A stretch of DNA of 27,451 nucleotides from a virus (Duplodnaviria > Heunggongvirae > Uroviricota > Caudoviricetes), in the IMG/VR virus record IMGVR_UViG_3300018489_000278, one strand, 5' to 3'. Below the pieces are notes generated by a model, which was not told the origin of the DNA, did not search any database, and was given only the letters and a program-made list of their open reading frames with translations. Within the stretch, counting starts at the first letter, position 1; each line of letters opens with the position of its first letter. Both the position numbers and the translations under genes were made by a program. Shown here one piece after another: positions 1-25,802 of the stretch.

Positions 1-70
1 AGAGAGTCTGAATAATCTTGTATGGCGAATATTAGCAATTGGCAACAATAACGGAGAGCGAAATGAATAG
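1..70 (+). CDS. 3' end of an upstream gene truncated by the window edge (…ESLNNLVWRILAIGNNNGERNE*)
   Basis: Frame starting at position 2 is open to TAG 68-70 and overlaps the ATG at 63, consistent with translational coupling. Confidence 0.45.
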   Translation, partial: ESLNNLVWRILAIGNNNGERNE

Positions 71-1061
71 GAAAGAACTTATAGAGTTTTATCAAGAGTT
101 TTATCAAGTTGATCATTTGCCAGATATTGTTAATAAGTCGCTGCATATTCCCGACGACGATGTTTTCGTTGCGAGTTTATTCGATCAGGATTTCGTTGAT
201 GAGTTTATTATAGAAAATAGGGTTAAAAACTTAAATTTATTGTATTACGATAAAGCAAGTCTTTCAACTGTTTACGCTATTCCTTTTTTAGAACAAGCTG
301 ATTGTTTGTCAGTAAATGTTTTAAGGCTTATCAATTATCAAAGATATATTCATCCAAGTTCTGTTGATGCATTAGACATAGAAAAAATGCAGTTTGTTTT
401 TGGTCCAGATCCTGCCTTATTTCAGAAAATTTTGAAGATGTACGAACTTTATACAGGAGAAAGATATAGAGTTGTGCCAACAATTCCTAAGATAAGAGAA
501 AGAAAGCTGTCAGCGTATGTAATAGTTGGTGTACCTAATTCAGGTAAATCTACATTAGCGAAAAGTATTGTCAATAACATTAACGAGCCCGTGAGACTTA
601 TTGACAGCGATAATTATATACAACAATATGCAGATGAGCATAAAATGACTTTTAATCAAGCTTATGAGACTCTGACAGAGAAGAATCTGTGGGCGCCGGT
701 TGTTGATATTCCATTAAACAATGCAATTGCCTCTGCTATTACCAATAAAGAGAATATTGTTATTTGTAGGACAGGTTTGTCTAAAAAGAATAGAGACAGG
801 ATATTGGAGAGAATCAGTAAGAATTATAACATTAAACTGTCTGTTCTTTTGCTTTCGCTTCCTAAAGCTCTTGAAGTGAATCAACAAAGAACTGATAGAA
901 CATTACCCGAGGAGAGGATTTTGCAATTTGCTAACAGGACAAACATACCTCGTCCTTATGAGTACGATAAGCTTTTTCATGTCGTCGTGGATCATTTGTC
1001 CGTTGAAACTATGAGCTTAACCACAGTGAAAGTTAACGAAAGAGCAGGCATAGAGAGGTAG
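63..1061 (+). CDS. Unknown N-terminal domain fused to a P-loop kinase domain (AAA_33 / polynucleotide-kinase-like)
   Basis: Walker A GVPNSGKST, then LIDSD and an R-rich lid (QQRTDRTLPEERI) typical of PNK/AAA_33 kinases. ATG 63 has GGAG at 53-56; the ORF track uses TTG 39. Ends …AGIER. Confidence 0.65.
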   Translation: MNRKELIEFYQEFYQVDHLPDIVNKSLHIPDDDVFVASLFDQDFVDEFIIENRVKNLNLLYYDKASLSTVYAIPFLEQADCLSVNVLRLINYQRYIHPSSVDALDIEKMQFVFGPDPALFQKILKMYELYTGERYRVVPTIPKIRERKLSAYVIVGVPNSGKSTLAKSIVNNINEPVRLIDSDNYIQQYADEHKMTFNQAYETLTEKNLWAPVVDIPLNNAIASAITNKENIVICRTGLSKKNRDRILERISKNYNIKLSVLLLSLPKALEVNQQRTDRTLPEERILQFANRTNIPRPYEYDKLFHVVVDHLSVETMSLTTVKVNERAGIER

Positions 1062-1099
1062 TTATGTTTTTTTAAATATTACACATAGGAGGTGTAAGA

Positions 1100-1945
1100 A
1101 TGAGTGAAATGGTTAGATTAGTAGAAGAAGTAAAGGTTACTTCTAATGACGGAAGAGAATTGACTTTGCATTTTTTGAACGAAGAAGTAGTAAAAGCTGT
1201 TTTAGAGAAGTTAGCAGAGGCAGAAGTTAAGCCTAAATGGTATAACACTCCTGACAAGAGGTTTACAGTTGGTGTTAGCTTTAAAGATGTCCAGGTATCG
1301 CATAATAGAGAGGGTAAAGTTGATGGCATCATTATTTATCCTGTCGTTTCTCAGTATTTCTTTGATAGAGATGCTAAGAAAAGAGTTAAAACTACTATAA
1401 GTGAAGACAAAACGATGCCTAGACTCAAACAAGCAATCGAGAAGTTTAATGAACAGTTTATTGTAAAAAATGAGAATGGCAAAACTACGAGAATTCTTGC
1501 AAAAGTAGATTTATCTAAAAAACAAACAGACAAAGAAGGCCAACCTTATACGAGTAAACATCTTTATATGTTTGTTGCTTTTGATACATATAAGATGAGA
1601 CAAGATCTAAAAGCAAACAATATTGATGAAACTAAAGAATATACAAAAGATGATGCTGTTGCAGCGCTTACGCCTGTTCTTTCTGACTTCTTGAAGAAAG
1701 ATGTTGAAGGTAAGATTAGTATTCTTGTAGATGATATCGCGAAGGCAACTGAGTATAAAAAAGAGCAAAGTCAAACACAAAAACAGAATCAGTATAGACA
1801 ACAGAATGCACAACAACAGCAACAACAACAGCAAAAACAAGAGCAACAACAACAGGAAGAAGATAACAATTTTGTAGATGAAGTAGAAAATGAAGATCTG
1901 CCCGACGGGATTTTTAATAGAGGCAGAGGCGAGGAAGAGCGTTGA
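1100..1945 (+). CDS. Putative diverged single-stranded DNA-binding (OB-fold) protein with poly-Q linker and acidic tail
   Basis: SSB-like segments FTVGVS and KVDLSKKQTDKEGQPYT, a Q-rich linker and an acidic tail EDLPDGIF resembling the SSB DDDIPF tail. Strong SD AGGAGGTG. Ends …GEEER. Confidence 0.4.
   Translation: MSEMVRLVEEVKVTSNDGRELTLHFLNEEVVKAVLEKLAEAEVKPKWYNTPDKRFTVGVSFKDVQVSHNREGKVDGIIIYPVVSQYFFDRDAKKRVKTTISEDKTMPRLKQAIEKFNEQFIVKNENGKTTRILAKVDLSKKQTDKEGQPYTSKHLYMFVAFDTYKMRQDLKANNIDETKEYTKDDAVAALTPVLSDFLKKDVEGKISILVDDIAKATEYKKEQSQTQKQNQYRQQNAQQQQQQQQKQEQQQQEEDNNFVDEVENEDLPDGIFNRGRGEEER
1811..1855 (+). repeat. Imperfect (CAA/CAG)n trinucleotide tract encoding poly-glutamine
   Basis: caacaacagcaacaacaacagcaaaaacaagagcaacaacaacag read directly; encodes QQQQQQQQKQEQQQQ. 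Confidence 0.9.
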
Positions 1946-1970
1946 GGATAAAAATTAGAGAAAAAGACTA

Positions 1971-2549
1971 ATGAATAATACTATACGGTATCAAGTGATA
2001 AAACAACACATAATAAATTTAATAAAACGAGTTGAACCTGATTTGATACCGTATAGTAAATCTAGCGGAAAAATGTGGATTACACAAGGATTTTATTATG
2101 CAGTAGATAAACATGAGACGCACGTAGATGTAAATAACGCTTTTGTAGAAATATTTAAAGAAAATGGGTATGAGACTAAACTTGAATACGGACAAGGTTA
2201 TACCGATGATGTAAAAGATAGAAGAGGAAGAATTGATGCATTTGCTACAAAAGGAAATGTTATGTGTGCTTGGGAATTTGATACAGGCATTACACCTAAA
2301 TATAAAAGCATAGAAAAAGTAATCAACTTATATAAGCAGAATACAGATAAGCAATTTTATGGTTTTCTCGCAGTAAGAGGTTCGTCAAAAGTCAATAAAG
2401 AGGATTTTGCAGAAACTGTTGCTAAGATCAATAAATTCGCTAAAGTTGATTTTCCTTTGTATATTGTCTATCTCTCTACCAATTATATCGCTAGATATCA
2501 AAGAGTTCGCACACCGTGCGAAAAACAAGGAGAAGCTAAAAATGGTTAG
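1971..2549 (+). CDS. Putative PD-(D/E)XK-superfamily nuclease-like protein
   Basis: Motif GRIDAFAT…CAWEFDTG (ID…ExD variant) followed by the KSIEKV helix. Confidence 0.45.
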   Translation: MNNTIRYQVIKQHIINLIKRVEPDLIPYSKSSGKMWITQGFYYAVDKHETHVDVNNAFVEIFKENGYETKLEYGQGYTDDVKDRRGRIDAFATKGNVMCAWEFDTGITPKYKSIEKVINLYKQNTDKQFYGFLAVRGSSKVNKEDFAETVAKINKFAKVDFPLYIVYLSTNYIARYQRVRTPCEKQGEAKNG

Positions 2550-3211
2550 AATAGGTCTTAGCGATAATTTAGAGCAGAATATGATGTTAATAGGTTTTTT
2601 ATCTGAAAATAATTATGTTCAGGACAAGATATCTAGAGACCCTCAAACAGGTACTACCGGCATTCCTAATATTGTATACGATCAGTTTAAAGAACAGGCA
2701 AATAACGAGTATATTAATAAAGCTTGGCTTAATATTAACGGAGATTATCCAATTTTTATTAATATGCCTATTATTTACATAATGCACGACATACTTCGTT
2801 CTGCAAGACAATACAAGAAAGAGGGCAACTTGTGTATTATGGATATTATTAAACAGGCTTGGAGAGATTATGACTTTTTCTTATCGTATCAAGACGAAGA
2901 AGAGAGAGACAGATGGAAGAATTTTGATATTCTTGTTAAAACTAAAGATAAGGTAGAAAAAGTCATGTTAGTCCTATATCATATGATATTTTTGACAATG
3001 CTTTTATATTCTCTATTTTGGATAAACTTAATGATATATATTATGTTGAAGAGATATGCAGTATTTCTGTTTTAGATGATATTCCCGTAGTTATATCTAC
3101 TATCAAAAAGAGAAGAAAGGTGATGTAGTCAGTAAATTGGTTGGCAGTTTACATTTGTTTTATGAGAATTTGGTTGTAAAGAGTATGCAAAGTTCGTCTA
3201 GCAGCATATGA
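2542..3211 (+). CDS. Hypothetical protein, probably broken by two homopolymer frameshifts
   Basis: ATG 2542 has SD AAGGAG and overlaps the previous stop; the track start at 2407 is a shadow extension. Adding one A at A5 2957-2961 and one at A5 3105-3109 extends the frame to TGA 3209-3211, just before the next SD. As sequenced, it stops at 3075. Confidence 0.5.
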
Positions 3212-3234
3212 TTTATATAAGTAAGGAGGTTAAC

Positions 3235-3623
3235 ATGTATTACAAGCAAAATTGTGGGAAGAAAATATGGATAGAAAAAATAGCAGTAGAAAAAAGAAGG
3301 TGTCTAACATGTCTTTAGATAGTAAGATTATTACTACATTAGATGCCGTTAGCGGTTATGTCCGTGAGTTGAGAGATCATTATGAAGGTGTTGTTAAGGA
3401 TAAGACCTTTAAATTATTGGTTGATAATTTAAACGATAAAGTTGAGTTACTGAAATTCTACATAATGGGTAGCGACGACGTGTATGATGGAGACGGAGAA
3501 GATGGTAACGTGATAGTGAGGCAAAATATTAGAAAGATTAGTAAAAAATCAGATCCTATAGAACAAACTATATTAGATCTGGAGGAGTTAAAAAAGAGAA
3601 TACAAGATGAGAGAGGAAGGTGA
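3235..3623 (+). CDS. Hypothetical protein (track ORF 3252..3623)
   Basis: SD AAGGAGGT 3223-3230 precedes ATG 3235, which joins the track ORF if one A is added at A4 3248-3251 (MYYKQKLWEENMDR…). An in-frame ATG at MDRKN is an alternative start. Confidence 0.55.
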
Positions 3624-3628
3624 TACAA

Positions 3629-4209
3629 ATGGGTTTTTTGTTTAACGAAGATTTTCATGATGAAGATTTTTTGAAAAACCAGAAGTAACATTGCAGGACA
3701 TCAAAGATATTCTCGCAAGGACAGGGCTAGATATTATATGGGACATCGATAAAATTCTCGATGTTTTGTATGACATATCAGGTAAAAAATGGACTTTCGA
3801 GGGTTATTTCAAACAAGAAGATCATAATTTTTTCTTTATTTCATGCGCTCCTGGTGGCATTGTTCTTGAAGACGATCCAAAAGATTTACATCCTGCTTTA
3901 TATTTTATGTACAAGGAGAGAATCAAAAAAGTGGCAGATCCCGTTTTCACAGAGGAAGAAATGTGGGATACGATAAGAAGAGCAGGAGGCACTAATGGTC
4001 TTGCAATATTAGATAGTTATCCACTAACAGCAGCGCAGTCTCAGAAAATTAGGCAACTATTAGACTATCAACAGCTTAAAAAACAGATAGAAAAAACAAG
4101 AGAGATATCAAGTAAAGAAGCTTCAGAGAAGATAGACAAAATGTCTAAGACTCCTGCGTTTAAAAATGTAGTGAATAAAATATTTGGAAAAGATGACATG
4201 GAGAGGTGA
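3629..4209 (+). CDS. Hypothetical protein ending …KDDMER (track ORF 3691..4209)
   Basis: SD GGAAGG plus ATG 3629. One extra A at 3674-3678 joins MGFLFNEDFHDEDFLK to KPEVTLQDIKD…. Confidence 0.6.
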
Positions 4210-4212
4210 CAA

Positions 4213-4791
4213 ATGGATAAATACGAAGAAATGTATAACGAGATAAAACAGAAAAACGGAGTATCTTTCGTAAGCACTGAATCACGTGTTAAATATTTGC
4301 GAAACGAGGCAAGTAAAATTCTTCCAACAACACCGTATAACGATACTGATGACTGCGTTGACATAATATACAAAGGTAGAGTTTTTTATGTAGAATCAGC
4401 TTTGTTTGAGCATCTACCACTATATGCAAAAATCTTGCACTTACCTTCATATGATTATGTAAGGATAGTGACATATTTGCCAGAAAAACCTAATGAGTTT
4501 TATGACTTTTATTATCCCATTTTGCCAGAAGAAGTTGATAGCGTTCTCTCCATGTTTTATGATTTAGTGTTTTGCAGTGATCCAAGTCTTCCTGAAGAAG
4601 AGAAAGAAAGATTGGAACGTAACGCTGGGATAGTGTTCTCAAATCTATTTCTGAAAAACATGGATTTGTCAAGGATAGTTTATGGTGGACCTGAGAAGAG
4701 AATACCGAAACTTGGACCAGAATTTTATATAGTAGAAAACAGCAAGTCTAATAACCAACGAAATAATACAGCAGAAGAGAATGAAAGATGA
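4213..4791 (+). CDS. Hypothetical protein ending …AEENER
   Basis: 192-aa ORF coupled to both neighbours (SD inside the previous stop region; ATGA overlap downstream). No recognisable family. Confidence 0.7.
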   Translation: MDKYEEMYNEIKQKNGVSFVSTESRVKYLRNEASKILPTTPYNDTDDCVDIIYKGRVFYVESALFEHLPLYAKILHLPSYDYVRIVTYLPEKPNEFYDFYYPILPEEVDSVLSMFYDLVFCSDPSLPEEEKERLERNAGIVFSNLFLKNMDLSRIVYGGPEKRIPKLGPEFYIVENSKSNNQRNNTAEENER

Positions 4792-5192
4792 GAAAATATA
4801 AAGATAGAGTAATGCTTGGTATTTTACTATTTTTGGTAGGGTACTATTTCAACGCTATTTTATATTTTAGGAATCCTTTATTCCAAGAGTGGCTTTTAGG
4901 CAAGTATTGTATAGGTGATATCTTCTATGTTACAAGTATTTCACTTTGGCTATCTGTTCTTTACGAAAAATTGTATAAGAAAGATATGAAAAATTTTAGT
5001 AAAGATCTTGTATTGTTAGGACTATTATTTTGGTGTTTAGGATATTGTTCAAATTGTTTTTTATTCCCTAGATATCGATTATTCAACGATATTATCTATT
5101 TTGACAAAGGTGTTTATAGTATCGGAGATATATTTCTTTTTACTGGTTATTCAACGATTTTATCTATAGTGTGGCGGGGAGGTGATAATTAA
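4788..5192 (+). CDS. Small multi-pass membrane protein with an internal duplication (loosely DUF5317-like)
   Basis: About four hydrophobic segments. Repeated motif GKYCIGDIFYVTS / GVYSIGDIFLFTG. The family resemblance is by eye only. Confidence 0.5.
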   Translation: MRKYKDRVMLGILLFLVGYYFNAILYFRNPLFQEWLLGKYCIGDIFYVTSISLWLSVLYEKLYKKDMKNFSKDLVLLGLLFWCLGYCSNCFLFPRYRLFNDIIYFDKGVYSIGDIFLFTGYSTILSIVWRGGDN

Positions 5193-5473
5193 ATGAAAAA
5201 CAAAGATGTAATGTTGTTCAAAAAGCCTGAGGATACTTTTGTAGAAGATCCTAAATTGGATAGTTTGAGAAAAACTATGTCTGAGCTGTTTGACTATCAG
5301 CAAAAACTTGTGAAAAGTGTAAAAACATAGATCCAGATTTGTATGAGGCAATGTCTGTATGTTTGAATAATTTGAGAACAGCTATTCAGTTATCTATAGA
5401 TTTAGCTTATTACAACAAAGAGCAATCAGTATTGCAACAAGCGAGAAGAAGTAACAGTGATTTTGAGCGTTAA
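5193..5473 (+). CDS. Hypothetical ~93-aa protein not in the ORF track, one homopolymer frameshift, ends …NSDFER
   Basis: SD GGAGGTG 5179-5185, ATG 5193. One extra A at 5302-5306 joins MKNKDVMLF…YQQK to TCEKCKNIDPDLYE…ARRSNSDFER* (TAA 5471-5473). Confidence 0.6.
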
Positions 5474-5501
5474 TTAAATTAAAATACGAAGGAGGCTTAA
5501 T

Positions 5502-5714
5502 ATGGATATTGAAAGAAGTTTAGAAGTTAAGAAAGAAGAAAGAAAAGATTTGGTTTTAGCAGACGGGAGTATCGTCCCAGAAGAGAAAAGGACTCGTTGT
5601 GAAATTTGGAGTAGACCTGTTGGTTATTTAAGGCCAGTTCAACTCTACAACAAAGGGAAACAGGAAGAATTTAAAGAGCGTAACAGTTTTAAAGTTTCAG
5701 AAGATCAAAAGTAA
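5502..5714 (+). CDS. Stand-alone NrdD-type (class III ribonucleotide reductase) C-terminal glycyl-radical domain
   Basis: CEIWSRPVGYLRPVQLYNKGKQEEFKER matches the NrdD C-terminal consensus C-x3-SRxxGY(L)RP…NxGKxxEF. Only 70 aa, with its own SD GAAGGAGG. Confidence 0.8.
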   Translation: MDIERSLEVKKEERKDLVLADGSIVPEEKRTRCEIWSRPVGYLRPVQLYNKGKQEEFKERNSFKVSEDQK

Positions 5715-5739
5715 ATTTAAAAAATAGAAGGAGGTACAG

Positions 5740-6336
5740 ATGCCAACATTAAATAGTAGAAATAAGTCAGACAAAGAAGTGTGTGAGTTGATGAGGTTAA
5801 AGCCTAACTTTTTAGAGCTTGATTTTAAAGGAAAGAATACAACAGAGGAAAAATTTAATTATTTGTTAAGCAAGTACAAAGAAACAATCGTGCAGAACAC
5901 TTGCTCCAAAGTTGCAGAAAACGAATTAAAAGAATACGCAGTGCAGTTAGATGAAGTTGTTGACTACCTGTTGGGGATCAAGGATTACAATGCCTTATGT
6001 CCGAAAGCGCAGAGAGTCATGATGTTCTTGCTTTCATGCACTTCTGTGTGGTATTGCAATAACAACAAATTGTTTGACTTTGAAAAGAAAGATGTGGATA
6101 GAGCATTAAAGTTAATTTATGCAGATGTACTTCCTGAATTCAGAAAACAAGTTATAAGGAATTTTTTAGAAAGAAATGAAATTGTAATTCGTTGCTTGTC
6201 TGATTATGACAAAAATGTGTTGGATAATCCGGACATTAATGATACTATTTGTATGTATAAATTAGGACTGCCTCTATTTTTTGTTCGCAACTACAGGAAG
6301 AGGCACAATATTATATCATGTGATGGGGAGGTATAA
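5740..6336 (+). CDS. Hypothetical protein
   Basis: 198-aa ORF with SD GAAGGAGGT. No recognised motif. Confidence 0.7.
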   Translation: MPTLNSRNKSDKEVCELMRLKPNFLELDFKGKNTTEEKFNYLLSKYKETIVQNTCSKVAENELKEYAVQLDEVVDYLLGIKDYNALCPKAQRVMMFLLSCTSVWYCNNNKLFDFEKKDVDRALKLIYADVLPEFRKQVIRNFLERNEIVIRCLSDYDKNVLDNPDINDTICMYKLGLPLFFVRNYRKRHNIISCDGEV

Positions 6337-6702
6337 GTGGAAGAAAATAATACCATAGATAAAAGGATAGAACAGTTGGATGAGAATATTCAATTAATAC
6401 ATGAGAATTTGAAATACTTACTTGGTCTTTTAAAAAAACTTGCGGAAGAGGATTCTATAAGTCACGTTAACATAGAAGAGCGAGCAGATGAAATAGCAAT
6501 ACCTGAAAGTAATCGTAGAGCTAAGAATCCTCATCGGTTTACTAATACTGCAGAAAAAGTACGTGGTACGATGAAGCTATTGCAGGATCTTTTCGATAAG
6601 CTTACTATTATAACTAATGATTTTTATATAGATCTTGACGATTTAGTAAGTGAAGAATACAGAAAATATAGAAAAGAATTGAGTATTCAAGAAGAACGGT
6701 AA
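6337..6702 (+). CDS. Hypothetical helical/coiled-coil protein ending …IQEER
   Basis: GTG start with SD GGGGAGG; heptad-like N-terminus. Confidence 0.7.
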   Translation: MEENNTIDKRIEQLDENIQLIHENLKYLLGLLKKLAEEDSISHVNIEERADEIAIPESNRRAKNPHRFTNTAEKVRGTMKLLQDLFDKLTIITNDFYIDLDDLVSEEYRKYRKELSIQEER

Positions 6703-6709
6703 AAAAATG

Positions 6710-6718
6710 TGTTATAAT
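6710..6718 (+). promoter_or_regulatory. Extended -10 element (TGnTATAAT) upstream of the 6745 gene
   Basis: TGTTATAAT in the intergenic gap. No good -35 at 17 bp. Confidence 0.4.
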
Positions 6719-6744
6719 ATAATTGAAAAGTATGGAGGTGTTCA

Positions 6745-7665
6745 ATGACAGAAAACGCGAGTATGAAAGATATAATTGAAGCATTAGATGAGGTTTGTTA
6801 TAAAACTGTTGGTATACATTATGTTCCTATTCAGTCTCTTGATATTTATGAGACAATAGAAGCACCGCCAAAAGCGGTCAAAACTCTATCGAAGTTGAGG
6901 GCTTTTGCAGATATAAAGCCACAACCTAATTTAGATAGTATTGTTTCTGATATTATAATCTTGTCTCTTTCTGAGAAGAATTTTGTCCACGAATTGGTTA
7001 GAAGCAGAATGCCCGATGCAGATTTTTCAGATCATCCTGTTAAAGATCTTATTCTTGCTATAAAATCTAATCTATATGCGTTGTATCAAGAAACACTAGA
7101 TAAATTAGCGGAAAATAAAAAGTCACCTAAAGAGATATTAGAGGATTATTTCAAAGAAAGAACAGACATTGTAGAAAATGCTTTCAGTTATCCGTCTAAG
7201 ACAATTCTACAATTTAGAAGCAAAGAAATTCCTTTTGATGAAGCAATTGCATCTGCTAATTCAATGATTACAAAAATGGGTATAAGTTTTAAATACATTC
7301 CTATTTTGTATGGCAGGAAGTTAGGACACCGTTTGCCTTATCAACCGAATTATAAGATAAGGAAATTATCAGAAGAAATCCTTCAGTCCGACGGTAACAA
7401 TATAGATAAGATGTCTCTGTTAGCAGATGTGTATGACTATATATTTGAGTTAATGAAAACAGAGGAAAATGAAATGCACCTGCAGAATCCTACACTGGAT
7501 GTGTTTAGGCAAAACATTCCTATATTAATAAGTAGATTAAAATATGGCACAGATGAGGACAAAGAAAGGATTGCTATGAGGATAGAATCTCTGTTCAGTG
7601 TTTACTTTAAAGAGAGACAAAACGCTGTAAAATTACAAGGATATGTTCATACAGAGGAAAGGTAA
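6745..7665 (+). CDS. Hypothetical protein ending …HTEER
   Basis: 306-aa ORF with SD GGAGGTG. No recognised motif. Confidence 0.75.
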   Translation: MTENASMKDIIEALDEVCYKTVGIHYVPIQSLDIYETIEAPPKAVKTLSKLRAFADIKPQPNLDSIVSDIIILSLSEKNFVHELVRSRMPDADFSDHPVKDLILAIKSNLYALYQETLDKLAENKKSPKEILEDYFKERTDIVENAFSYPSKTILQFRSKEIPFDEAIASANSMITKMGISFKYIPILYGRKLGHRLPYQPNYKIRKLSEEILQSDGNNIDKMSLLADVYDYIFELMKTEENEMHLQNPTLDVFRQNIPILISRLKYGTDEDKERIAMRIESLFSVYFKERQNAVKLQGYVHTEER

Positions 7666-7672
7666 CAGAATA

Positions 7673-7701
7673 TTGACTTTTATGTATTGCCATGATATAA
7701 T
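7673..7701 (+). promoter_or_regulatory. Sigma70-type promoter for the parM-containing operon
   Basis: TTGACT 7673-7678, 17-bp spacer, TG at 7693-7694, TATAAT 7696-7701. Confidence 0.75.
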
Positions 7702-7750
7702 GCTTTTGAAAGGTTATTTTATAAGCCTGTTTTTACGAAGGAGGTAAAAA

Positions 7751-8070
7751 ATGGGACAAGATGATTTTACAGTAGGGCGAAAAATTGCATGGAAAGATGA
7801 AGAAGTTTAATAAAAGCAATACCTGAGACTGATAGGGAATTGATAAACTTGTTAACACAACTTTCTGACACAATAGACAAAATGCAAAGTGGCGAGTATG
7901 ATAAAGTAGAGACTCTTGCTCTATATGACAAACAGATAGAATTATTGCGGGAAATGATTAAGAGTGTAAGAAAGCAAAAAGAAAATCAGAAAGAATTTTA
8001 TGCTGTTAAAGAGGAAATGAGCAAATTAAAACTTATCAACGATGTAGATGAGACGTTGGATAAGGATTAA
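7751..8070 (+). CDS. Small helical protein upstream of parM, candidate partition adaptor (track ORF 7840..8070)
   Basis: SD GAAGGAGGT plus ATG 7751. One extra T at 7806-7808 gives MGQDDFTVGRKIAWKDEEVLIKAIPETDRELINLL…DKD. The adaptor role is inferred from position only. Confidence 0.5.
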
Positions 8071-8099
8071 CTTTTTAGAAAGTAAGGAGGTTATTGACT

Positions 8100-9236: not shown

Positions 9237-9264
9237 AAAAAAGAGGAATGGAGGCATTTATAAA

Positions 9265-9504
9265 GTGACAGTAACCGAGTTAGTAAAAAAAGTATCCGTT
9301 GAGACAGGTTTTACACAAAAAGATGTAGAAACAACTCTTAAAGCTACTTTTGATATCATACAAAAAACGCTGTTAAACGGAGAGAGAGTCACTGTTAGAA
9401 AGAAATTTACCATTAGGCCTTTTGTCGTAAAAGGTTATCTTATAAACGGTAGAACAAAAGTTGAGCCTCATATTAGATGTTCTTTTGAGTTGAAACGGAG
9501 GTAG
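9265..9504 (+). CDS. HU/IHF-family histone-like DNA-binding protein with a short arm
   Basis: MTVTELVKKVSVETGFTQKDVETTLKATFDIIQKTLLNGERVTV matches HU helices 1-2 and the first strand. Confidence 0.75.
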   Translation: MTVTELVKKVSVETGFTQKDVETTLKATFDIIQKTLLNGERVTVRKKFTIRPFVVKGYLINGRTKVEPHIRCSFELKRR

Positions 9505-9511
9505 TAGCAGA

Positions 9512-14897: not shown

Positions 14898-15505
14898 ATG
14901 AATACGAGAAAGCTTTTAAAGGAAGATGATTGGCTCAGAGATTTTCTCGATGAAACTCTGGGTGCCATTACTGAGGAGCAGTTCAATGCGACATGGACGA
15001 CGGTAGAGTTTTACCACAAAGTAGGAGAGGTGTTAGCGCCGAATATGGAAGAACTCAAAAACATTTGCGTACAGAAAGCAATGTTGATGTAATGAAATTT
15101 ATTGCAACAAAAATTAAGAAGTCGCCTGCAACAGTTTACAGGGCAGTACAGTTCTACAACAAGTTTCCTGATTTGAATGCTCTGCCTGAAGGTAAAAATA
15201 CTTCGTGGAGAAAAATCTGTAGGTTATATTTACCTAGTTTGCCAAAAACAGATCTTACAGATTGCTTGTTTATTGTTACGGAGGATTTAGCTCATGGTAT
15301 GCGTAAGGGCGACCAAGACTATAATTTCCAGCAGGCAAGCGTTATTTTAGACGATGATGGTACGAAAATTAAGAAGTTTGTCCTTTTCTTTTCACTTGCA
15401 CCTGCGAAAACAGAAGAATTTAAGTTGCCCGATGTAATCGAAGAAAGTGAATTGAATGATATTTTAAATAAGGTTGAAAAAACAAAGACGGTGATTAATT
15501 ATTGA
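14898..15505 (+). CDS. DUF1016/YhcG N-terminal-like helical domain protein (two track ORFs joined at one homopolymer frameshift)
   Basis: SD GAAGGAGGT plus ATG 14898. One extra A at 15057-15061 gives FYHKVGEVL…ELKKHL…FIATKIKKSPATVYRAVQFYNKFPD…SWRKI, the YwxxG…la…s..nl…qFY..fpd…sW pattern of DUF1016_N. Confidence 0.55.
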
Positions 15506-17199: not shown

Positions 17200-17626
17200 A
17201 TATTTTAATAGGTACGGCACAAAATACAATAACGCAAAGATAGAATACGATGGAGAAAAATTTGATTCTATGCTCGAGCTTACCTATTATAAGTATCTGT
17301 TGCTTTTGAAAGAAGCAAAAGTTGTTAAAAAGATAGAGAGACAACCAACGTATGAGCTTATACCTGCTTTTGACAAGAACGGTAAGCATTATAGAGCTAT
17401 CAAATATACACCAGATTTTAGAGTGACTTACTACAACAAAGATAAAGAACCAAGAAGGGAAACAGATAAGAAAAAAGATGAGTATGTTGAGATTGTCGAA
17501 GTAAAAGGTTTCCCAGATACGGCATTTAAGATAAGAGTTAGACTGTTTGAGTACTTGTATAAAGACGCAAATCTTGTTATAATAAATAGTAGAAACATAA
17601 AAGAGTACGTAGGAGGTGTATTATGA
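17192..17626 (+). CDS. DUF1064 family protein (PD-(D/E)XK-like)
   Basis: KYNNAKIEYDGEKFDS..E..YY…QP.YELIP…YTPDF…EVKG..D..F; TTG start with SD GGAGG 17181-17185. Confidence 0.85.
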   Translation: MYRYFNRYGTKYNNAKIEYDGEKFDSMLELTYYKYLLLLKEAKVVKKIERQPTYELIPAFDKNGKHYRAIKYTPDFRVTYYNKDKEPRRETDKKKDEYVEIVEVKGFPDTAFKIRVRLFEYLYKDANLVIINSRNIKEYVGGVL

Positions 17627-17886
17627 AATATCATTTAGTTAAAAAAGAGCCGTTGATTAACTCTCTCGGCGAAGAGATTCCGAACTGTTATTTTAGCACT
17701 TACATAAGCGAAGATGCGAAGAATAAACTGGTTCTGTTAAGGTCTCCTTGGTTTAAAGAAGAAGATGTATCAAAAATCTTTTTTGATCGACACAATGAGG
17801 ATGGTAAAGACTATCACACAGCGGTATTTTTTGTGCATGATAAGCAAAATGATTCTTATTATTCTGTAGAGTTTTTGTCAAAATAA
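17623..17886 (+). CDS. Hypothetical protein
   Basis: 87 aa, SD AGGAGGTG, ATGA overlap. Confidence 0.65.
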   Translation: MKYHLVKKEPLINSLGEEIPNCYFSTYISEDAKNKLVLLRSPWFKEEDVSKIFFDRHNEDGKDYHTAVFFVHDKQNDSYYSVEFLSK

Positions 17887-17887
17887 T

Positions 17888-18067
17888 ATGAAACTGCCCG
17901 TTGATATGTTTGATAAGAAATTCTGGTATGCAGAGCCTGTAGTTAATAGAATGTTTGATAAAAATGAGTTTCTTTTGACTATTGATTCTTACGACAAGAT
18001 TAGGAAAAAATTAGATAAACCTAGTGTATTTTTCCACGATACAGGAGATCGAGAGCAAGAGCGATAG
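17888..18067 (+). CDS. 59-aa hypothetical protein not in the ORF track, ends …GDREQER
   Basis: Fills the gap exactly (1 nt after the previous stop, 2 nt before the next start): MKLPVDMFDKKFWYAEPVV…HDTGDREQER*. Confidence 0.6.
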   Translation: MKLPVDMFDKKFWYAEPVVNRMFDKNEFLLTIDSYDKIRKKLDKPSVFFHDTGDREQER

Positions 18068-18643: not shown

Positions 18644-20856
18644 ATGTTAGAAAAAATGGTTTTAAAATTTTGAATCCAAGAGAATTTGTTTACGGTCACA
18701 CAGATCAAAAGTTGCTTGATGAGGTTCAATCAGGGCTTACAGGGAGGGTTATACCCACAAGTCATTCGCTAGATTTTGCTAAGTCTGCACAAAAAGATAA
18801 TAGCAAAGCTTTTGATCTTAGTGGTGAAAGAATGAACTTCTTTCTTGGTATTGCAGGATCTCAATCGAAGAGCGATCCTAATACAATCCATACTATTGGA
18901 TATTTAGTTATTCCATATGAGTATTTGCCAGATAATCTGCCACTTAAAAGTGCTAAAAAAGATGTAGTCATATTACTTGATAGTTGCCCTGGTTATTATA
19001 GCGATCAGAATAAAAATGCTGTATATAAAAGACTTGTTGCAGATAAACACATAGATTATATGTTAAAAGATATAAATTACAACCTTCAGAATATTCATGA
19101 TTTAATTGGTGGCATACTTCATTCTTCAGACAATCCTCTATTGGCATCTGATATCAGATACGATATTAGCAAAAATGCAGTTATAGTACTACCAAATAAA
19201 GATAGACTTAAGGAGCTGTTGGTTGAGGACAATCAAAAAATTACGGACTCTAACTTTTCTTTTAAATTTGATATCGCAGTTAGCAAAAATCCTCAGTTTT
19301 TTGAAGAATTATTGGCATCTTTGGATTCTTTTATGAAGAAAGAAGAGGAAACGAATAAAACAGTCATAGCGCAACAAGGTCCAAGAGAACCGTTAGACGA
19401 TATTCTTGATAGAAGCGCTCGTCATAATACGCCAGACGATAAAGATATGTGGGCTTTTAAGCAGCAAGAGTTTGAAGATCTTAAGAAACAGCTTGCTAAT
19501 ATAAACGTAGTGCCAACTAAAAACTTCTTATCAGCGTATTACGCAATGAATGCTTTTGTTTTTGGAGCTAAGCTACAATTGAATAGTACTGACAAATCAA
19601 ATAATCCAGTAAATGAGCGTTTGCTTGTTATAAGTGGTCCTCCAGGTGTTGGTAAAACATTTGCAGTCCAAGCATTCTTGAAACTGTATGAGGATAAAGT
19701 AGCCTGCGCTGAGATATCAGGTAACGCTAATGATATGGACGCTGTTAAGAGAGACCTTATAGGAACAGTGAGACTTGAAGGCAACGAGCATGGTGGTACT
19801 TCTACAAAATTTGAAGCAGGCCAATTTGCAAAAGTTATAGGTAAAGCTATATCAGAGAATAAAGATCATTGTGTCATATTCTATAATGAGTTTAACAGAA
19901 ATATCGGTCTTAATGAGTTCGATAAATTTGTAAGAAGTATAGGTGATAGTAACAGGATTGATATTGATCCAGAGGCGAACCTTGACGAAGTTGCGAATGT
20001 GCTTATTACTGAATATAACATCGTTCCTATTCGCGATGGTAATAGACTCGTTATAGATCTCAACAATGTAGATGGACATGGCAAGAAAGTAAATTTGTCT
20101 TTTATTTTGACTGGTAACTTCCCTGATAAAGATTTGACTGCAGCAGATTTGCAGGTTTCAGACCAGATACCTTTGGCTTTGTCTAGAAGGTCTTATCTTG
20201 TGAAAATGGATTACTTTGATCCAAGAGATAAAGATGATGCAAAGCAAATTAAGTCTATGATTTATCACAATGGCCACTTCTTGGATACTGTTTCTGTGTA
20301 TTCACAAGCAGTAGCAAAAGCTAGTGGTTTTAACGAACAGCAGACAAGCGATTTTGTATCTACGGTTAGACAAGCTCTTTTAAGTGAGAATTTAGATATT
20401 ATTAGACAAAAATATGGCGAGAAAGCGTATCTCGTAACGGATGCTTTTGTTGGAGAAAATGGACAAAGCTCTTTGTATAGAAACATTAACGATTTTTATA
20501 CTAAGTTTTACACTTTATACAAGAATGGTAAAACAACGCTTGTTCCAGCTATAAGCGAAATAGCTATGGAGATGCAACAGGTATTGGATATCGTAGCACA
20601 AGTAAATTCATCTGAACTTGTTTCATCGCAAATTAAGAAATCTTTTGTTGACTTTTTGTATAAAGAAGAAACAGTGTCAAAAGCATTCCCTCCAGGATCT
20701 GAGGAAGAGGAAGGTATGATAGAAATGATTCAGTTTATGTCAGACGATCTATTTGCACCTGCAGATTTGTATAACTATGTTTTGTTTAAAGCACAATCAG
20801 CAACACTTCCTAAAAACAACAATGTCAAACAGGTACAAGACGATAAAGAAAGGTGA
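18644..20856 (+). CDS. MoxR/McrB-like AAA+ NTPase, copy 1 (track ORF 18670..20856), ends …DDKER
   Basis: Walker A GPPGVGKT, Walker B-like IFYNEFNR, sensor-1 TGNFPD, Arg finger ALSRR. ATG 18644 joins with one extra T at 18660-18663, giving MLEKMVFKI, which aligns with LNKLVFNV of copy 2. Confidence 0.8.
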
Positions 20857-20862
20857 TAGACG

Positions 20863-23289
20863 ATGACTGATAACGAAAAACAAAAAATCGTAGATCAGTT
20901 GAGAGAGTCTATTAGTAAAGCACAAGAGCATTATGAACTTTATGTTCCGCATGCTACTGCTTCATTTGATGGTGTCTATCGCTTAAAAGCCAATGTTTAC
21001 AACAATCTCAATACACAGCCTGTTACGATTGTCCAAGTACCGCCTAATTTGACAAACGAGGAAGAATTACGCTCTCTGTTTTTTAGACAAGGCGTAGATG
21101 CAAATATTTATATTGGCGGACAGTTCAAGTTGATAGATATGCAGGCAAAAAAAGCCTATCCGTACGAGTCTGCTGTATTACAAGAAAAATATACTATTGT
21201 AGTACATGAACTTTATCATATAGCTATAACATTTAATCCATTCCTTTTCAGTATAGAAAATGAAAAAGATAAATATGTAGATCCGCAAATAGGCAACATT
21301 ATTGATGACTTTATTATTGATGTAATTGGAACGCCGCTTCTTCATGAAAATAGCATGTTGGAGTCTGCAACAAGAGGTTTTGAGATTGACAAATACCATT
21401 ACTACAATATGATGAAGCCAGGTAAAGGATTTGCAGCAGATTTTTGCAGATATTTATATGGTTATGTATTAGAAAGAGATATAAGTAAGTCTTATAGTTT
21501 TCCTAAAATGGAAGGTTTGCCAGACGAACAGCAAAAACAGTTGGAAAAAGCATTTAATAAGTTTAGGCAAAGAATATTGAGTATTAGAGTTAGACTTGAT
21601 AATAAAGATCCTGATCTTTACTATTTTTGGAATTATCCTAACTTGTTTACTAATGGCAGGGATAATGTGCTTTTAAATGAAATATATGCTACGATCCGTT
21701 CTTTAACAAGAGATTTGAAGTTAATAGATAAAAAATTACAAGACGAGCAAAAAAAGTCCTTAAAGGATTTAATGCAACAAAATAACAATGCACAACAGCA
21801 AGGTCAAGGTCAAAAAGGTGAAGGTAACGACGGAGGTCAGAATAATCCTAACAGTCAGAAACAGGGACAAGGACAAGACCAGCAAGATGCTAACGCACAA
21901 CAGCGACAACAAGGACAAGAAGGTGGCGAGCAACAGCAACAAGGACAAGGGCAAAGTCGCGGTCAACAAGAGGCAAAAGGCAGTGGAGATAAAAACCAAC
22001 AAAGCCAAGCATCTTCTCAACAGTCGCAAAACGGAAAAGATATTGATAGAAATTCTACAGGTAATGCTACTGTAAAAAATTCTAACTCTGAGCAAAAAAG
22101 TGGCAATGGCAAAGGGCAAAGAACAAATAATATAGACGGAGAAAAAACAGAGCAAGAAGGACAAAGTGAAAAGGTAGGCGAGAAGCAAAATAAAGAAGGT
22201 AATCAAGATAGCAAAAACGGAGAAGAGCAATTATCAAATGATAAACAGCAAGCGTCAGGCGATAATGAAAATGGTAGAGAATTAAGTCAAGAAGAGATAC
22301 AAGAAATTGTTAATGAGTTGCTTAATCAAATGATCACCTCTAATACAGTAATTTTTGTTGATAGAGACAGCGGAAAAGTTATATCAGAAGACGAGGTTGG
22401 TAATACATTGCAGACATTACAAGAAGTTTTAGATGCAATTTCAGAGAAAAAAGGTGCAGGTGCTAAAGTTGTTGATGGTAATCCTGTTACGCTAGTGTCA
22501 AAGTATTATAATCCAGAGCTAAGAAGACAGTCTCGCAAGATTGTGAATAAATATCTTAATACAAAACTGCACGCCTTTGCAGATAATGCTAATTTGTATG
22601 GGAATAATATTGTATTAGGCAAGCAAGGGAACGATAGTGGAAGAATAAACATCGATAGAGTGGTTAAACAGTATCCTAAGATTGTTTCACGTAGCAATTC
22701 TCCTGCACTTGTTTACGATAAATATAAGATGTCACCTATGCCTAAAATAAATATTTATGCCGTATGTGATGTATCTGGTTCTATGGACACATTAAACAAA
22801 ACATTAAAACCTTTTCTTTCTACTTTTTATAGAGAAGGTCTTAATTCGTTGTTTCATATATCAATAGTTGATTTTTCAGACAGCGTAGTGTTAGAACCAG
22901 AAAGTGCCGTTAGATCATATGATACATATTTTAGCAATATTAGAAGAGGTAATATAAATGAAAGTGGTACAGATCCTTTACATCCGACAAATCTTCCAGT
23001 GTGGAAAAAAATTATTAGAGAAGGTCATCCTGATTTGGTGATAGTGTATTCAGATTTTGATATTAGTGGCGCGAGATCGAAACAAGAGGCACAAGCACTT
23101 ATGAAAGAGACTTTTAGAAAATTGGGAGCTAAAGAAAACGGTATAGTTTTTGTTGATGTCAGCAGTGAGAAATTTCGTGAAGTCAGAAGCGTACAAGAGT
23201 TTTTAGAGAAGGTAGCCGACATCACTATGACTAATATTATTGACTACTTTAATAATAAGGTTAAAATGATAAGTAGCGTTGGTAGGTAA
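20863..23289 (+). CDS. Putative metallopeptidase (HExxH) plus VWA domain protein, copy 1 (DUF2201-like architecture)
   Basis: HELYH at 21205-21219, NIIDDFIID, ~170-aa Q/G/N/E-rich linker, MIDAS DVSGS at 22768-22782, GTDP and YSD. Confidence 0.8.
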   Translation: MTDNEKQKIVDQLRESISKAQEHYELYVPHATASFDGVYRLKANVYNNLNTQPVTIVQVPPNLTNEEELRSLFFRQGVDANIYIGGQFKLIDMQAKKAYPYESAVLQEKYTIVVHELYHIAITFNPFLFSIENEKDKYVDPQIGNIIDDFIIDVIGTPLLHENSMLESATRGFEIDKYHYYNMMKPGKGFAADFCRYLYGYVLERDISKSYSFPKMEGLPDEQQKQLEKAFNKFRQRILSIRVRLDNKDPDLYYFWNYPNLFTNGRDNVLLNEIYATIRSLTRDLKLIDKKLQDEQKKSLKDLMQQNNNAQQQGQGQKGEGNDGGQNNPNSQKQGQGQDQQDANAQQRQQGQEGGEQQQQGQGQSRGQQEAKGSGDKNQQSQASSQQSQNGKDIDRNSTGNATVKNSNSEQKSGNGKGQRTNNIDGEKTEQEGQSEKVGEKQNKEGNQDSKNGEEQLSNDKQQASGDNENGRELSQEEIQEIVNELLNQMITSNTVIFVDRDSGKVISEDEVGNTLQTLQEVLDAISEKKGAGAKVVDGNPVTLVSKYYNPELRRQSRKIVNKYLNTKLHAFADNANLYGNNIVLGKQGNDSGRINIDRVVKQYPKIVSRSNSPALVYDKYKMSPMPKINIYAVCDVSGSMDTLNKTLKPFLSTFYREGLNSLFHISIVDFSDSVVLEPESAVRSYDTYFSNIRRGNINESGTDPLHPTNLPVWKKIIREGHPDLVIVYSDFDISGARSKQEAQALMKETFRKLGAKENGIVFVDVSSEKFREVRSVQEFLEKVADITMTNIIDYFNNKVKMISSVGR
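21772..22280 (+). repeat. Low-complexity Q/G/N/E-rich coding region (CAA/CAG-rich)
   Basis: QQNNNAQQQGQGQKGEG…QQQQGQGQSRGQQ… read directly. Confidence 0.85.
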
Positions 23290-23327
23290 AAATGTATAGA
23301 CCTAATTATTTTGTTGAAGGAGGTAAT

Positions 23328-23650
23328 ATGGCAATGAATAACAAGAAACCGGCGATGTTGCAGGCTTTTTATAAATTAGTTTATGCAACAGAACCTGCAG
23401 TATTGAGCGGGAAGGATGTTGTTTATATTTTTAAAAACGATGATAGTATCTTAAAAAGTTTTTTAACACATTTCAGAATGTCGTTTCTAATTACGAGAAT
23501 GCAAAATTTTGTTTATCTGCAGATTTGCAGAATGGCTCTTTTGTTTTGTATGTGAAGGATCTTATAAACGGTCCTTATATTCAGTTTGACATTGTTACAG
23601 AAGAAGAACTTTTTTTGATACAGAGTTTAAAAGAGCGTCATTATTTTTAA
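23328..23650 (+). CDS. Hypothetical ~107-aa spacer gene between the two AAA/VWA modules, one homopolymer frameshift
   Basis: SD GAAGGAGGT plus ATG 23328. One extra T at 23459-23464 continues as FFNTFQNVVSNYENAKF…LKERHYF*. As sequenced, it stops at 23555. Confidence 0.55.
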
Positions 23651-23666
23651 GAAAGAAAAGTAGGAG

Positions 23667-25802
23667 GTGCGTGTGAAAGTAATGACTTTAAACAAATTAG
23701 TATTTAATGTTGACGATGACAGGTTAGATCGTTTATTAGATCCACAAACTGCTACAGGTAGTGGAAACGTTAACGAACCAGTTGTAAAGGATATTCTTAG
23801 CGACAATGGGACAAATGTTAATATTGTTTATTCTACTATCTACGCACGAGCCTCCAGTGGTGGAACTGTTAATCAGCAGAAACCAATTGAATTTAATATA
23901 GCAGGTGTAATCTGTGTTCCGTATGAATTCTTCGCCGATAATTCTCTGATTAATGCAAGCAAGAAAGACTTAATATTTATTTTTGATACATGCGAAGGAT
24001 ACAAAAATCATACATATCCATACGGAAGAGCAGAAGTGCATGTTAATTATATAATGAGACATTTGACAGAGATGGTAGATACTTTTGCTAATACTTACCA
24101 CAGAAGTAATAATTTTGATGATATAGCAAAAAATAGTCTACTAATATTATTGAGTCCAGACGAGATAAAGAATCTTGGTATTAATAGAAAAACAGTAAAT
24201 TCTATCTCAAAGAATATTGAGATATCTCGTATGCTTAAAAGATCCAATGTTGATATAGAAGCTAATAGTATATTAAGTATTGTCAAAGAGGCTGAACCTC
24301 TTGCAGGGAAACTGATTACAGAGATGGGTATCCAACAAAGCAAAGAGAATGTATCCACCAATGGCGAAATAGATCTTTCTCTTTTGAATGGTGAACAGAT
24401 AACAAACTTGATTCTTACTTCTATTAAAGATAAAAATGTTATACATTCAACAATTAGAAGCACTATTGAAGAGAAAAATAGGATTTTTAATGAAAAACTT
24501 ATGTCGATGCGGATTGTCCCTACGAGAAACTTTCTTAAGGTATATAAAGAAATAGATCACTTGATTAAAACATCAATTAGAATCAAAAAAGTAAATAACG
24601 AGTCTTCTTTAATTATATATGGACCTCCTGGTGTTGGCAAAACATTTGCTGTTGATGCTTACAGACATTTAAACAGTAGCGATTACGCTTTTGCTTTTAT
24701 ATCTGGCGATCCAGACAATATTACTGCGTATAGAAATGACCTAATTGGTAGAAACATTGTTACTGCCAAAAATGGTGGCACTGAGAATGAGTATGTTCCA
24801 GGACAGCTTGTTATAGCTTTAAGCGATGCTATTGTTAATAAGAAGAAAGCTTTGAATGTTATAATAAACGAATTTAACAGATCTGCTTCGCTTGGCAAAC
24901 TGGACCAAATTATTCGTGATGTAGGCGATACAGGTATTATAAGAATCGAAGCGCAAGCAGACATGGAAGAACTTGTCAATGTAATGAGAGAGAAGTACGG
25001 TATAAACGCACAGTTTAAAGGTGGTTTTATTGAAATAGATACAAATAATGTTGACGGCAAAGGTACACGTGTTCCTGTGACATTTACATTGATTGGCAAT
25101 TTGCCGGATAAAGATCTCTCGGCGTCTTCTTTGGGCGTTCATGAAGAAATACCAGCGGCATTGGTGAGAAGATCAATTACGAGAAGACTGGATTATACAA
25201 ATCCGTATACAAAACAAGGATTGGATGAATTAAAAATGGTTGTAATGTACGATAGGCATTTTAATATAATGTTAGAAGATTATGTTTATGGTATTGCTTG
25301 TATCAATAAAGTAAATGCTACAGAACTTTTCAATGATGTAATGAGTGCGTTAGCAAGTAATGATTTTTCTCATATAAAGCAAAAGTATAACGAGGCAATA
25401 TATAATGCAATTGATGAATTTGTCGGTAGCTCAGAAAATTCTATTATTAACCAATCGCTCACTTTTTACAATAATTTATACGATATGTATCAAAATGGAC
25501 AAATAAAAATTGTTCCTTCTATTCCAGAGATACTGAACCATTTTAGTGCGATGTTAGATATTATTAAAGATTCTGCTACATTACAAGATGCACAAGACGA
25601 CATAAACGATGCTATTAAGCAGTTTGTTGATAAATATGTATCTTCAAAAATGATAGATATAGACGAAGTTGATGAAAGTTTTAAAGACTTTATTAAAATA
25701 TGGACTAACCATATACTTAAGCCGGCTCTTTTGTATGACTATTTCAACATAATTCCTGAAGATGTATTGCAGAGAGGTCAAATAGATGGAGAAGAGAGGT
25801 AG
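23667..25802 (+). CDS. MoxR/McrB-like AAA+ NTPase, copy 2, ends …DGEER
   Basis: GPPGVGKT, VIINEFNR, IGNLPD, ALVRR. N-terminal domain is homologous to copy 1 (VPYEF…ASKKDLIFIFDTCEGY). Confidence 0.8.
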   Translation: MRVKVMTLNKLVFNVDDDRLDRLLDPQTATGSGNVNEPVVKDILSDNGTNVNIVYSTIYARASSGGTVNQQKPIEFNIAGVICVPYEFFADNSLINASKKDLIFIFDTCEGYKNHTYPYGRAEVHVNYIMRHLTEMVDTFANTYHRSNNFDDIAKNSLLILLSPDEIKNLGINRKTVNSISKNIEISRMLKRSNVDIEANSILSIVKEAEPLAGKLITEMGIQQSKENVSTNGEIDLSLLNGEQITNLILTSIKDKNVIHSTIRSTIEEKNRIFNEKLMSMRIVPTRNFLKVYKEIDHLIKTSIRIKKVNNESSLIIYGPPGVGKTFAVDAYRHLNSSDYAFAFISGDPDNITAYRNDLIGRNIVTAKNGGTENEYVPGQLVIALSDAIVNKKKALNVIINEFNRSASLGKLDQIIRDVGDTGIIRIEAQADMEELVNVMREKYGINAQFKGGFIEIDTNNVDGKGTRVPVTFTLIGNLPDKDLSASSLGVHEEIPAALVRRSITRRLDYTNPYTKQGLDELKMVVMYDRHFNIMLEDYVYGIACINKVNATELFNDVMSALASNDFSHIKQKYNEAIYNAIDEFVGSSENSIINQSLTFYNNLYDMYQNGQIKIVPSIPEILNHFSAMLDIIKDSATLQDAQDDINDAIKQFVDKYVSSKMIDIDEVDESFKDFIKIWTNHILKPALLYDYFNIIPEDVLQRGQIDGEER

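Follow-up and report, generated by a model that had tools for sequence, protein, structure and literature searches.

A terminal Glu-Arg dipeptide on unrelated soluble proteins of a conjugative element: a probable selected tag and possible translocation signal

The IMG/VR virus record IMGVR_UViG_3300018489_000278 contains a stretch of 27,451 nucleotides (hereafter the window), which we tiled with 36 open reading frames (ORFs) on the + strand; no convincing genes were found on the other strand. Ten of the 36 ORFs end in Glu-Arg-stop (hereafter ER ends, or the tag) and 15 end in Arg-stop, the five further Arg ends being Gly-Arg (three genes), Arg-Arg, and Leu-Arg. The ER ends are carried by a P-loop kinase, seven orphans, and two paralogous AAA+ ATPases, and they are missing from DnaB, a ParB-like protein, TopB, a ParM-like protein, an NrdD-like protein of 70 amino acid residues, and a pilus operon. 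An earlier note on this DNA had listed the same ten ends, and all of them were recovered with the coordinates, codons, and stop codons that it gave; its observation that the pilus and membrane proteins, TopB, ParM, and the HU-like protein are untagged was also reproduced, the HU-like protein ending in Arg-Arg. The ends had been assigned to ten separate complete genes; every end is real, but the ORFs of 44 residues (5339-5473) and 59 residues (17888-18067) are the 3′ parts of larger genes. One carrier had been called similar to SSB (a protein that binds single-stranded DNA), for which Pfam, NCBIfam, and PDB searches gave no support. Besides the kinase and the generic AAA+ proteins, the tagged proteins had no matches in PHROGs, Pfam, or NCBIfam, and the tagged proteins of related elements are likewise orphans.

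The number of ER ends far exceeds that expected by chance. Glu and Arg account for 6.7% and 4.3% of the residues in the window, respectively, and Glu-Arg for 0.45% of internal dipeptides. Approximately 0.15 ER ends are expected by chance in the window, in line with the previous estimate of well under one, and the binomial P value for at least ten is 3e-16 to 8e-16. Because the + strand is purine-rich, stops were also counted in every frame of this strand as a background, and approximately 0.35% of the off-frame stops outside the real gene ends were preceded by Glu-Arg codons. The analysis was then widened to copies of the element (L001-L004 and L029), a syntenic sister element (L005, L006, and L033), and distant relatives found through their AAA+ proteins (L008, L009, and L018-L028). 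Among 180 non-redundant genes of this wider sample, 34 have ER ends and 61 have Arg ends; when the clade sample was clustered into 99 families, 19 included at least one ER end and 33 at least one Arg end. Arg is therefore enriched approximately eightfold at the last position (61/180), whereas Lys is at approximately onefold (15/180). Glu, Asp, or Gly is found at position -4, and position -3 is variable and often hydrophobic (Met, Tyr, or Ile, but also Arg or Glu), followed by Glu-Arg. As had been proposed, the tag is a feature of soluble proteins: ER ends were carried by 33 of the 142 proteins that lack predicted membrane segments and by only one of the 38 that have them (Fisher p = 0.002). 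Three other explanations were ruled out, namely, an alternative genetic code (all three stops are in use and there are no tRNA genes), a recombination-linker sequence common to the gene ends (the nucleotides are not conserved), and common descent of the tails (the 19 families are unrelated).

An artefact of chance, purine-rich composition, overlap with Shine-Dalgarno (SD) sequences, or errors in assembly and gene calling is effectively refuted by these figures and by the following controls. Three or four of the ten ER ends in the window (those at 4209 and 20856, and possibly those at 4791 and 18067) have the next start at most 10 nt away, and GAGAGG and GAAAGG-TGA resemble SD sequences; the terminal codon pair of the gene at 3691..4209, 3 nt from the next start, may double as one. 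However, in agreement with the view of the earlier note that SD overlap does not account for the set, ER frequency did not depend on the downstream distance: it was 17/97 when the next same-strand start was more than 15 nt away, 14/58 when it was close, and 3/25 when there was none. This is not the pattern of an SD overlap, in which an SD-like purine hexamer 5-12 nt ahead of the next start would encode the ending, and the ending would be lost when no gene follows. The gene after the kinase has its own AGGAGG, 38 nt downstream, and the tail of AAA+ ATPase 2 has no SD role because the next gene begins 17 nt upstream of its stop. All six kinds of Arg codon are used at ER ends, and in the distant relatives the terminal Arg codons are mostly CGA, CGT, CGC, and CGG, with genes on both strands and convergent ends included. 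In the pooled element loci, 57% of terminal Arg codons are AGG or CGG compared with 19% internally, and TAG follows 9 of 20 ER ends compared with 27% of all stops. A stop-context preference modulates the choice of codon without creating the ER pattern.

Homopolymer errors are the other point in favor of an artefact. Compared with other assemblies, the window has single-base homopolymer frameshifts at 5330-5339, 17886-17888, 14898-15505, ~23250-23289, and ~27315, which split or mis-terminate the 93-residue gene, the gene of 148 to 151 residues, a 202-residue gene, and the ends of both VWA-domain partners of the AAA+ ATPases. The Arg ends at 23289 and 27315 are doubtful because the assemblies differ there by a frameshift. 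By contrast, for each gene with an ER end, independent assemblies of the element from other samples agree with the window in the final 45 nt.

The sister element shows that the terminal dipeptide is kept while the residues before it change. Its left half (L033) is syntenic with window positions 1-10,300 and has ER ends on nine of 20 genes. Seven of the eight tagged window genes with an L033 orthologue keep Glu-Arg there, at 32-72% sequence identity, and the eighth ends in Gly-Arg; one gene ending in Gly-Arg in the window ends in Glu-Arg in the sister, and all untagged pairs remain untagged. Eight ER-ER pairs, six from L033 and both AAA+ proteins, were compared by position. Identical residues were found in none or one of the eight pairs at -3 and at -5 to -12 and in four at -4, the conserved acidic position, and 10 of the 16 Glu and Arg codons were synonymously changed. 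The orthologue comparison thus gave the outcome that the earlier note had looked for in a real tag. In the AAA+ family, the terminal Glu-Arg is invariant down to 27% identity and forms the last two invariant columns of the alignment (A1): homologues of AAA+ ATPase 1 at 27-36% identity end in EMER or EFER, with the near-variants MERG and RERE carrying an extra residue, and more distant homologues have other endings without Glu-Arg. Tagged proteins are also more diverged between the sister elements than untagged ones (median identity of approximately 43% versus 62%; one-sided Mann-Whitney p = 0.03). Between window 63-7665 and L033:2311-11272, tagged proteins share 32-58% identity (the kinase, 72%) and most untagged neighbors 53-89%.

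Clade specificity was judged against other contigs and elements. A scan of GTDB genomes and IMG/VR with the whole AAA+ alignment returned only Walker-A look-alikes, and the contigs of these matches served as controls: among the unrelated low-GC Firmicute and viral contigs, 0 of 81 genes had ER ends and 6 of 81 had Arg ends. In L036, a syntenic relative with similar GC content and gene packing and with the AAA+/VWA module, the counts were 0/25 and 1/25, respectively. Around 80 related coupling proteins from named Firmicutes (10 kb on either side), 15 of 1433 genes (1.0%) had ER ends and 9.3% had Arg ends, values that serve as a baseline only because such flanks consist mainly of machinery, and the machinery of the window's element is untagged too. 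These results show that the ER ending acts at the amino acid level and is clade-specific, with each family consistently tagged or untagged, and it is very probably a selected protein-level tag.

A lineage bias without any address function, in which Glu-Arg before the stop is optimal for termination or expression and highly expressed soluble genes drift toward it, seems very unlikely. Positively charged last residues are enriched in bacteria generally and affect expression (PMC7246954), and the AGG/CGG skew and the over-use of TAG after ER ends hint at a stop-context effect. However, the universal bias is approximately twofold, led by Lys, and present in all protein classes (1.76-fold for Arg and 2.32-fold for Lys, and stronger in membrane proteins; Weber et al. 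2020, PMC7246954). The ER set shares with it only the favored positive last residue: the enrichment here is approximately eightfold and restricted to Arg, with Glu at -2, and it is family-specific and nearly absent from membrane proteins. The tag is also binary and family-conserved, it is missing from TopB, ParM, DnaB, ParB, the pilus genes, and the whole type IV secretion system (T4SS) described below, and the syntenic relative L036 has none.

The genes discussed here are listed in the table.

Table. Features of the window and its continuation, with C-terminal tails and sister-element orthologues.
Feature	Coordinates	Strand	Length	Tail and last codons	Sister orthologue; remarks
P-loop kinase (AAA_33 / polynucleotide-kinase-like)	63..1061	+	332 aa	AGIER, GAG AGG TAG	P0014 (72% identity), ASMER, GAA AGA
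Orphan	1100..1945	+	281 aa	GEEER, GAG CGT TGA	Family duplicated in sister: KEEER (44%) and QGNER (36%)
Orphan	3309..3623	+	~104-123 aa	ERGR (tag variant)	IQNER (58%)
Orphan	3691..4209	+	172 aa	DDMER, GAG AGG TGA	RDNER (38%)
Orphan	4213..4791	+	192 aa	EENER, GAA AGA TGA	TMEER (32%); ATGA overlap with next gene
93-aa gene	5193..5473	+	93 aa	SDFER, GAG CGT TAA	DRDER (43%); frameshift-split in window (5193-5330 + 5339-5473), unbroken in L001, L002, and L004
Orphan	6337..6702	+	121 aa	IQEER, GAA CGG TAA	KQSER, GAG CGT (41-42%)
Orphan	6745..7665	+	306 aa	HTEER, GAA AGG TAA	NVNGR (54%), the sole tagged pair in the L033 comparison that is not ER-ER; no close downstream gene start
HU-like DNA-binding protein	9265..9504	+		LKRR (Arg-ending, not ER)	EKGR
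Gene of ~148-151 aa	17623..18067	+	~148-151 aa	REQER, GAG CGA TAG	EEVGR; frameshift-split in window (17623-17886 + 17888-18067); 151 aa in L001 (cut by locus end), 148 aa in L029
AAA+ ATPase 1	18670..20856	+	728-737 aa	DDKER	
AAA+ 1 partner (HExxH, Q/G/N-rich linker, VWA with DxSxS)	20863..23289	+		SVGR in window (doubtful); NNKVK in other copy	Orthologues end in MER (L005, L008, L023), NER (L025), or EMEL (L018/L022)
AAA+ ATPase 2	23673..25802	+	709 aa	DGEER, GAG AGG TAG	NGKER, GAA CGA
AAA+ 2 partner (HExxH and VWA)	25786..27451	+		RRIDVTR, just beyond window	RRIETTR in L006 (sister); L039 (same element) concurs; a frameshift produces the false stop at 27315 (QILLR)
Conjugation module	L039:10001-21636 (~window-equivalent 32,790-44,430)				Coupling protein, short T2SSE-like ATPase, Maff2-like, PrgI-like, VirB4/PrgJ-like, 1348-aa protein

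A mini-ORF of three codons (ATG TTT TTT TAA; 1062-1077) lies directly behind the GAGAGG of the kinase gene, 4 nt past its stop, and could be a re-initiation remnant or chance.

The window itself contains no T4SS genes, and the conjugation machinery was found in its continuation. In L036, a VirD4/TraG-type coupling protein is encoded downstream of the AAA+/VWA module, and the equivalent gene of the present element also encodes a coupling protein (PF02534 / TraG-D_C / TrwB_AAD_bind, E = 2e-51). Its full-length form (P0039, 649 residues) is on a 111.8-kb contig that also bears the element; it belongs to the CD1115/Tn1549-type family and is orthologous to the L036 protein (53% identity). The T4SS genes, including PrgI-like and Maff2-like ones, span 5-17 kb past the window end with an onset at ~5.3 kb, and the VirD4-type gene and that of the VirB4/PrgJ-like ATPase (592 residues) lie 5-13 kb past it. 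The presence of these genes indicates a conjugative element whose T4SS is of the Gram-positive type, which bears out the conjugative nature that had been suggested from the window. ER ends are absent from all 14 genes of the block that runs from the edge of the window to the 1348-residue protein and includes the coupling protein and the PrgI-like and VirB4-like proteins. No relaxase was seen in the readable stretches of the module. Compared with P0046 and P0047, the coupling proteins of the tagged clade (P0039, P0041, and P0042) are extended at both ends, by a basic stretch at the N terminus (IVGDGKT...GFK) and by a charged one of approximately 25-30 residues at the C terminus. L036-type proteins and most named Firmicute homologues have neither; these extensions are a weak lead as to what may read the tag.

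The DNA of the window had no near-identical match in plasmid and phage collections. Pieces identical or nearly identical to parts of this element were found in several unrelated metagenome projects (L030, L031, L032, and L035 from ENA/Logan runs, and four JGI samples), and the element is widespread, although it is absent from plasmid, phage, and GTDB collections. It also carries a type IV pilus-like operon with a prepilin peptidase and a T2SSE ATPase (window 9512-14796), which resembles the thin pilus of IncI plasmids but is found here in a Firmicute-type element. The coupling protein of L036 is directly followed by another T2SSE-like ATPase and by an N_methyl pilin (L036:19275-21623).

A motif that is specific to families and to one clade and sits at the free end of cytosolic proteins, on a probably flexible tail, is what would be expected of a short linear motif with one receptor. 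The sequence [acidic/Gly]-x-Glu-Arg-COOH would thus be a short C-terminal recognition motif under purifying selection, carried by a subset of soluble, mostly fast-evolving, non-machinery proteins of one AT-rich conjugative clade, and a single reader would bind its free, flexible Glu-Arg end. We consider that the ER end is a T4SS translocation signal with a probability of roughly 0.4. This reading is ranked first because the coupling protein is the sole known reader of C-terminal signals on conjugative elements (PMC8406263 and references therein) and is present here, because the machinery is untagged, and because the carriers are fast-evolving orphans, of a kind that may be expected to act on a new host. 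The likeliest reader would be the element's own VirD4-type coupling protein, which would pass tagged proteins to the conjugation channel so that they reach the recipient alongside the DNA; there, orphan establishment or anti-defence proteins, the kinase, and the AAA+/VWA modules may act early. More tentatively, Glu-Arg-COOH could be, for a conjugative T4SS of the Gram-positive type in particular, a translocation signal defined by its sequence and read by a coupling protein of the CD1115 family, perhaps via its charged extensions.

The AAA+ proteins bear on two other possible readers. The protein encoded after each AAA+ gene carries an HExxH motif in its N-terminal part and a VWA domain (DxSxS) in its C-terminal part, joined by a Q/G/N-rich linker, and this two-gene module is tandemly duplicated in the window (18670-27451) and is also present in L005, L006, L008, L018, L022, L023, L025, and L036. 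The AAA+ family is tiny, with 26 representatives among 1.84 billion proteins. Both large NTPases had been taken for conjugation ATPases, but searches of Pfam, NCBIfam, and PDB identified them as generic AAA+ proteins, neither VirB4 nor VirD4. The last ~10 residues of the structure model of AAA+ ATPase 1 have a pLDDT (predicted local distance difference test) of 44-50, suggesting that the ER tail is probably flexible; the AlphaFold model of the kinase, made from a three-row alignment, has a mean pLDDT of 44, too low to inform on its tail.

The main rival of translocation, which we regard as rather unlikely, is a stability tag: Glu-Arg would be a C-degron or a protective cap that sets the lifetime of the tagged cohort, and its reader would be a host machine of the ClpXP, ClpCP, or Lon type or the element's own AAA+/HExxH-VWA proteins. 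The strictly terminal position, the flexible tails, and the restriction to cytosolic proteins are consistent with this idea, the stability and expression of bacterial proteins are known to depend on their C-terminal residues (PMC7246954), and the element has two conserved AAA+ and HExxH/VWA modules; timed expression would also be plausible for fast-evolving orphans. However, known bacterial C-degrons are non-polar (ssrA-type) and charged ends usually stabilize, a reader encoded by the host hardly explains the untagged syntenic L036, the AAA+ and partner proteins are tagged themselves, and protease activity of the HExxH partner is unsupported. If this reading is correct, the C-terminal degron or cap would be unusual in being charged and would be confined to one lineage of mobile elements.

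The same modules raise the possibility of a docking motif for an intracellular hub that is neither channel nor protease, such as the metal-ion-dependent adhesion site (MIDAS) of the VWA domain, which would assemble or remodel its clients in the donor. Acidic side chains or carboxylates are the ligands of MIDAS sites, each AAA+ gene is followed by a partner with the conserved DxSxS VWA motif, and (M)ER is the ending of the AAA+ proteins and of many partners, which is what tail-mediated coupling of AAA+ and VWA proteins would predict. We nevertheless consider docking quite unlikely: the AAA+/VWA module of L036 is untagged, one hub for so many orphan families would be unexplained, and binding has no positive support. 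A complex prediction for the VWA domain (A3), the tagged orphan 6337-6702 (A4), and Mg gave a score of 0.22 (mark, 0.32), which speaks neither for nor against binding.

Several points weigh against the translocation signal as well. The link between the tag and the coupling protein is indirect, and neither the coupling protein nor the AAA+/VWA module by itself predicts the tag, because L036 has both and is untagged. Known T4SS signals are longer and looser charge patterns, not a strict terminal dipeptide. Between 20% and 45% of the soluble proteins are tagged, including AAA+ ATPases of ~700 residues that would need unfolding, which is large for a substrate set, and no relaxase, primase, SSB, or anti-restriction protein was identified among the carriers. 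The AGG/CGG skew of the terminal Arg codons points to a nucleotide-level influence, an SD-like run or a G before the stop, layered on top of the amino acid pattern. Finally, a host-wide bias may be involved. Of the interpretation offered in the earlier note, the non-random, amino-acid-level, and element-specific nature of the tag on soluble proteins stands, whereas the window itself has no T4SS gene, and neither an SSB nor a relaxase was found.

The tag separates the fast-evolving orphans, the kinase, and the AAA+/VWA modules, as tagged cargo, from the untagged machinery or housekeeping proteins of the element. Substrate recognition by Gram-positive T4SSs is experimentally almost unexplored (PMC12857230), and a 2025 review describes limited evidence on substrate recruitment in these systems. 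A selected tag of two residues would make substrate choice in Gram-positive systems directly testable, and candidate establishment or anti-defence proteins could be picked out of uncultured mobile elements by a simple rule on their sequence. If translocation is correct, the sequence of an element that is not in culture would suffice to list all the proteins it injects, and the terminal tag would differ from one element lineage to another.

A literature search found no paper describing a terminal Glu-Arg tag, and to our knowledge none of the conjutomes of conjugative elements has a defined short sequence tag. Coupling proteins are the substrate receptors of T4SSs, and conjugative T4SSs co-transfer plasmid proteins (PMC8406263). 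The proposed function most resembles that of the pED208/F conjutome (ParA, ParB, SSB, PsiB, and PsiA), in which an element sends a soluble cohort of its own to the recipient in a coupling-protein-dependent manner (PMC8406263, PMC11288057). However, those substrates are Par, SSB, and Psi proteins of a Gram-negative F-type system, whereas the carriers here are mostly orphans.

Two classes of C-terminal signal are related in form. Three features of VirB/D4-type signals are found here, in that the tag is at the extreme C-terminus of unrelated soluble proteins, a VirD4-type coupling protein and a T4SS are encoded, and the machinery is untagged. The signals of Agrobacterium VirB/D4 substrates (VirF, VirE2, VirE3, and VirD5) are likewise at the extreme C-terminus of unrelated soluble proteins, depend on Arg, and are read by the VirD4 coupling protein, whose family includes that of the present element. 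They are described as C-terminal and positively charged (Vergunst 2005, as cited in PMC8406263), forming a loose, net-positive, Arg-rich stretch of ~20 residues (R-x7-R-x-R-x-R). By contrast, the tail here ends in a strict Glu-Arg, is not net basic, is acidic at -2 and -4, and shows no Arg periodicity in the last 10 positions; moreover, the T4SS here is of the Gram-positive type and part of a conjugative element, not an effector system. The Dot/Icm substrates of Legionella and Coxiella are similar in having Glu-containing disordered tails on hundreds of unrelated fast-evolving proteins, read by a coupling complex (DotM). However, the E-block is a diffuse Glu-rich region ~10-17 residues from the end, with small or hydrophobic residues near the end, whereas the tag is a fixed terminal dipeptide with Glu enriched at -2 and -4 only and no dominant residue at -5 to -10, and no DotM, IcmS, or IcmW homologues were seen here. 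Nor does the charged terminus resemble ssrA-like ClpX C-motifs, which have a non-polar end such as Leu-Ala-Ala-COOH. Because it fits neither the Agrobacterium tail nor the E-block, the Glu-Arg end, if it is indeed a translocation signal, would be a new form of signal outside those classes.

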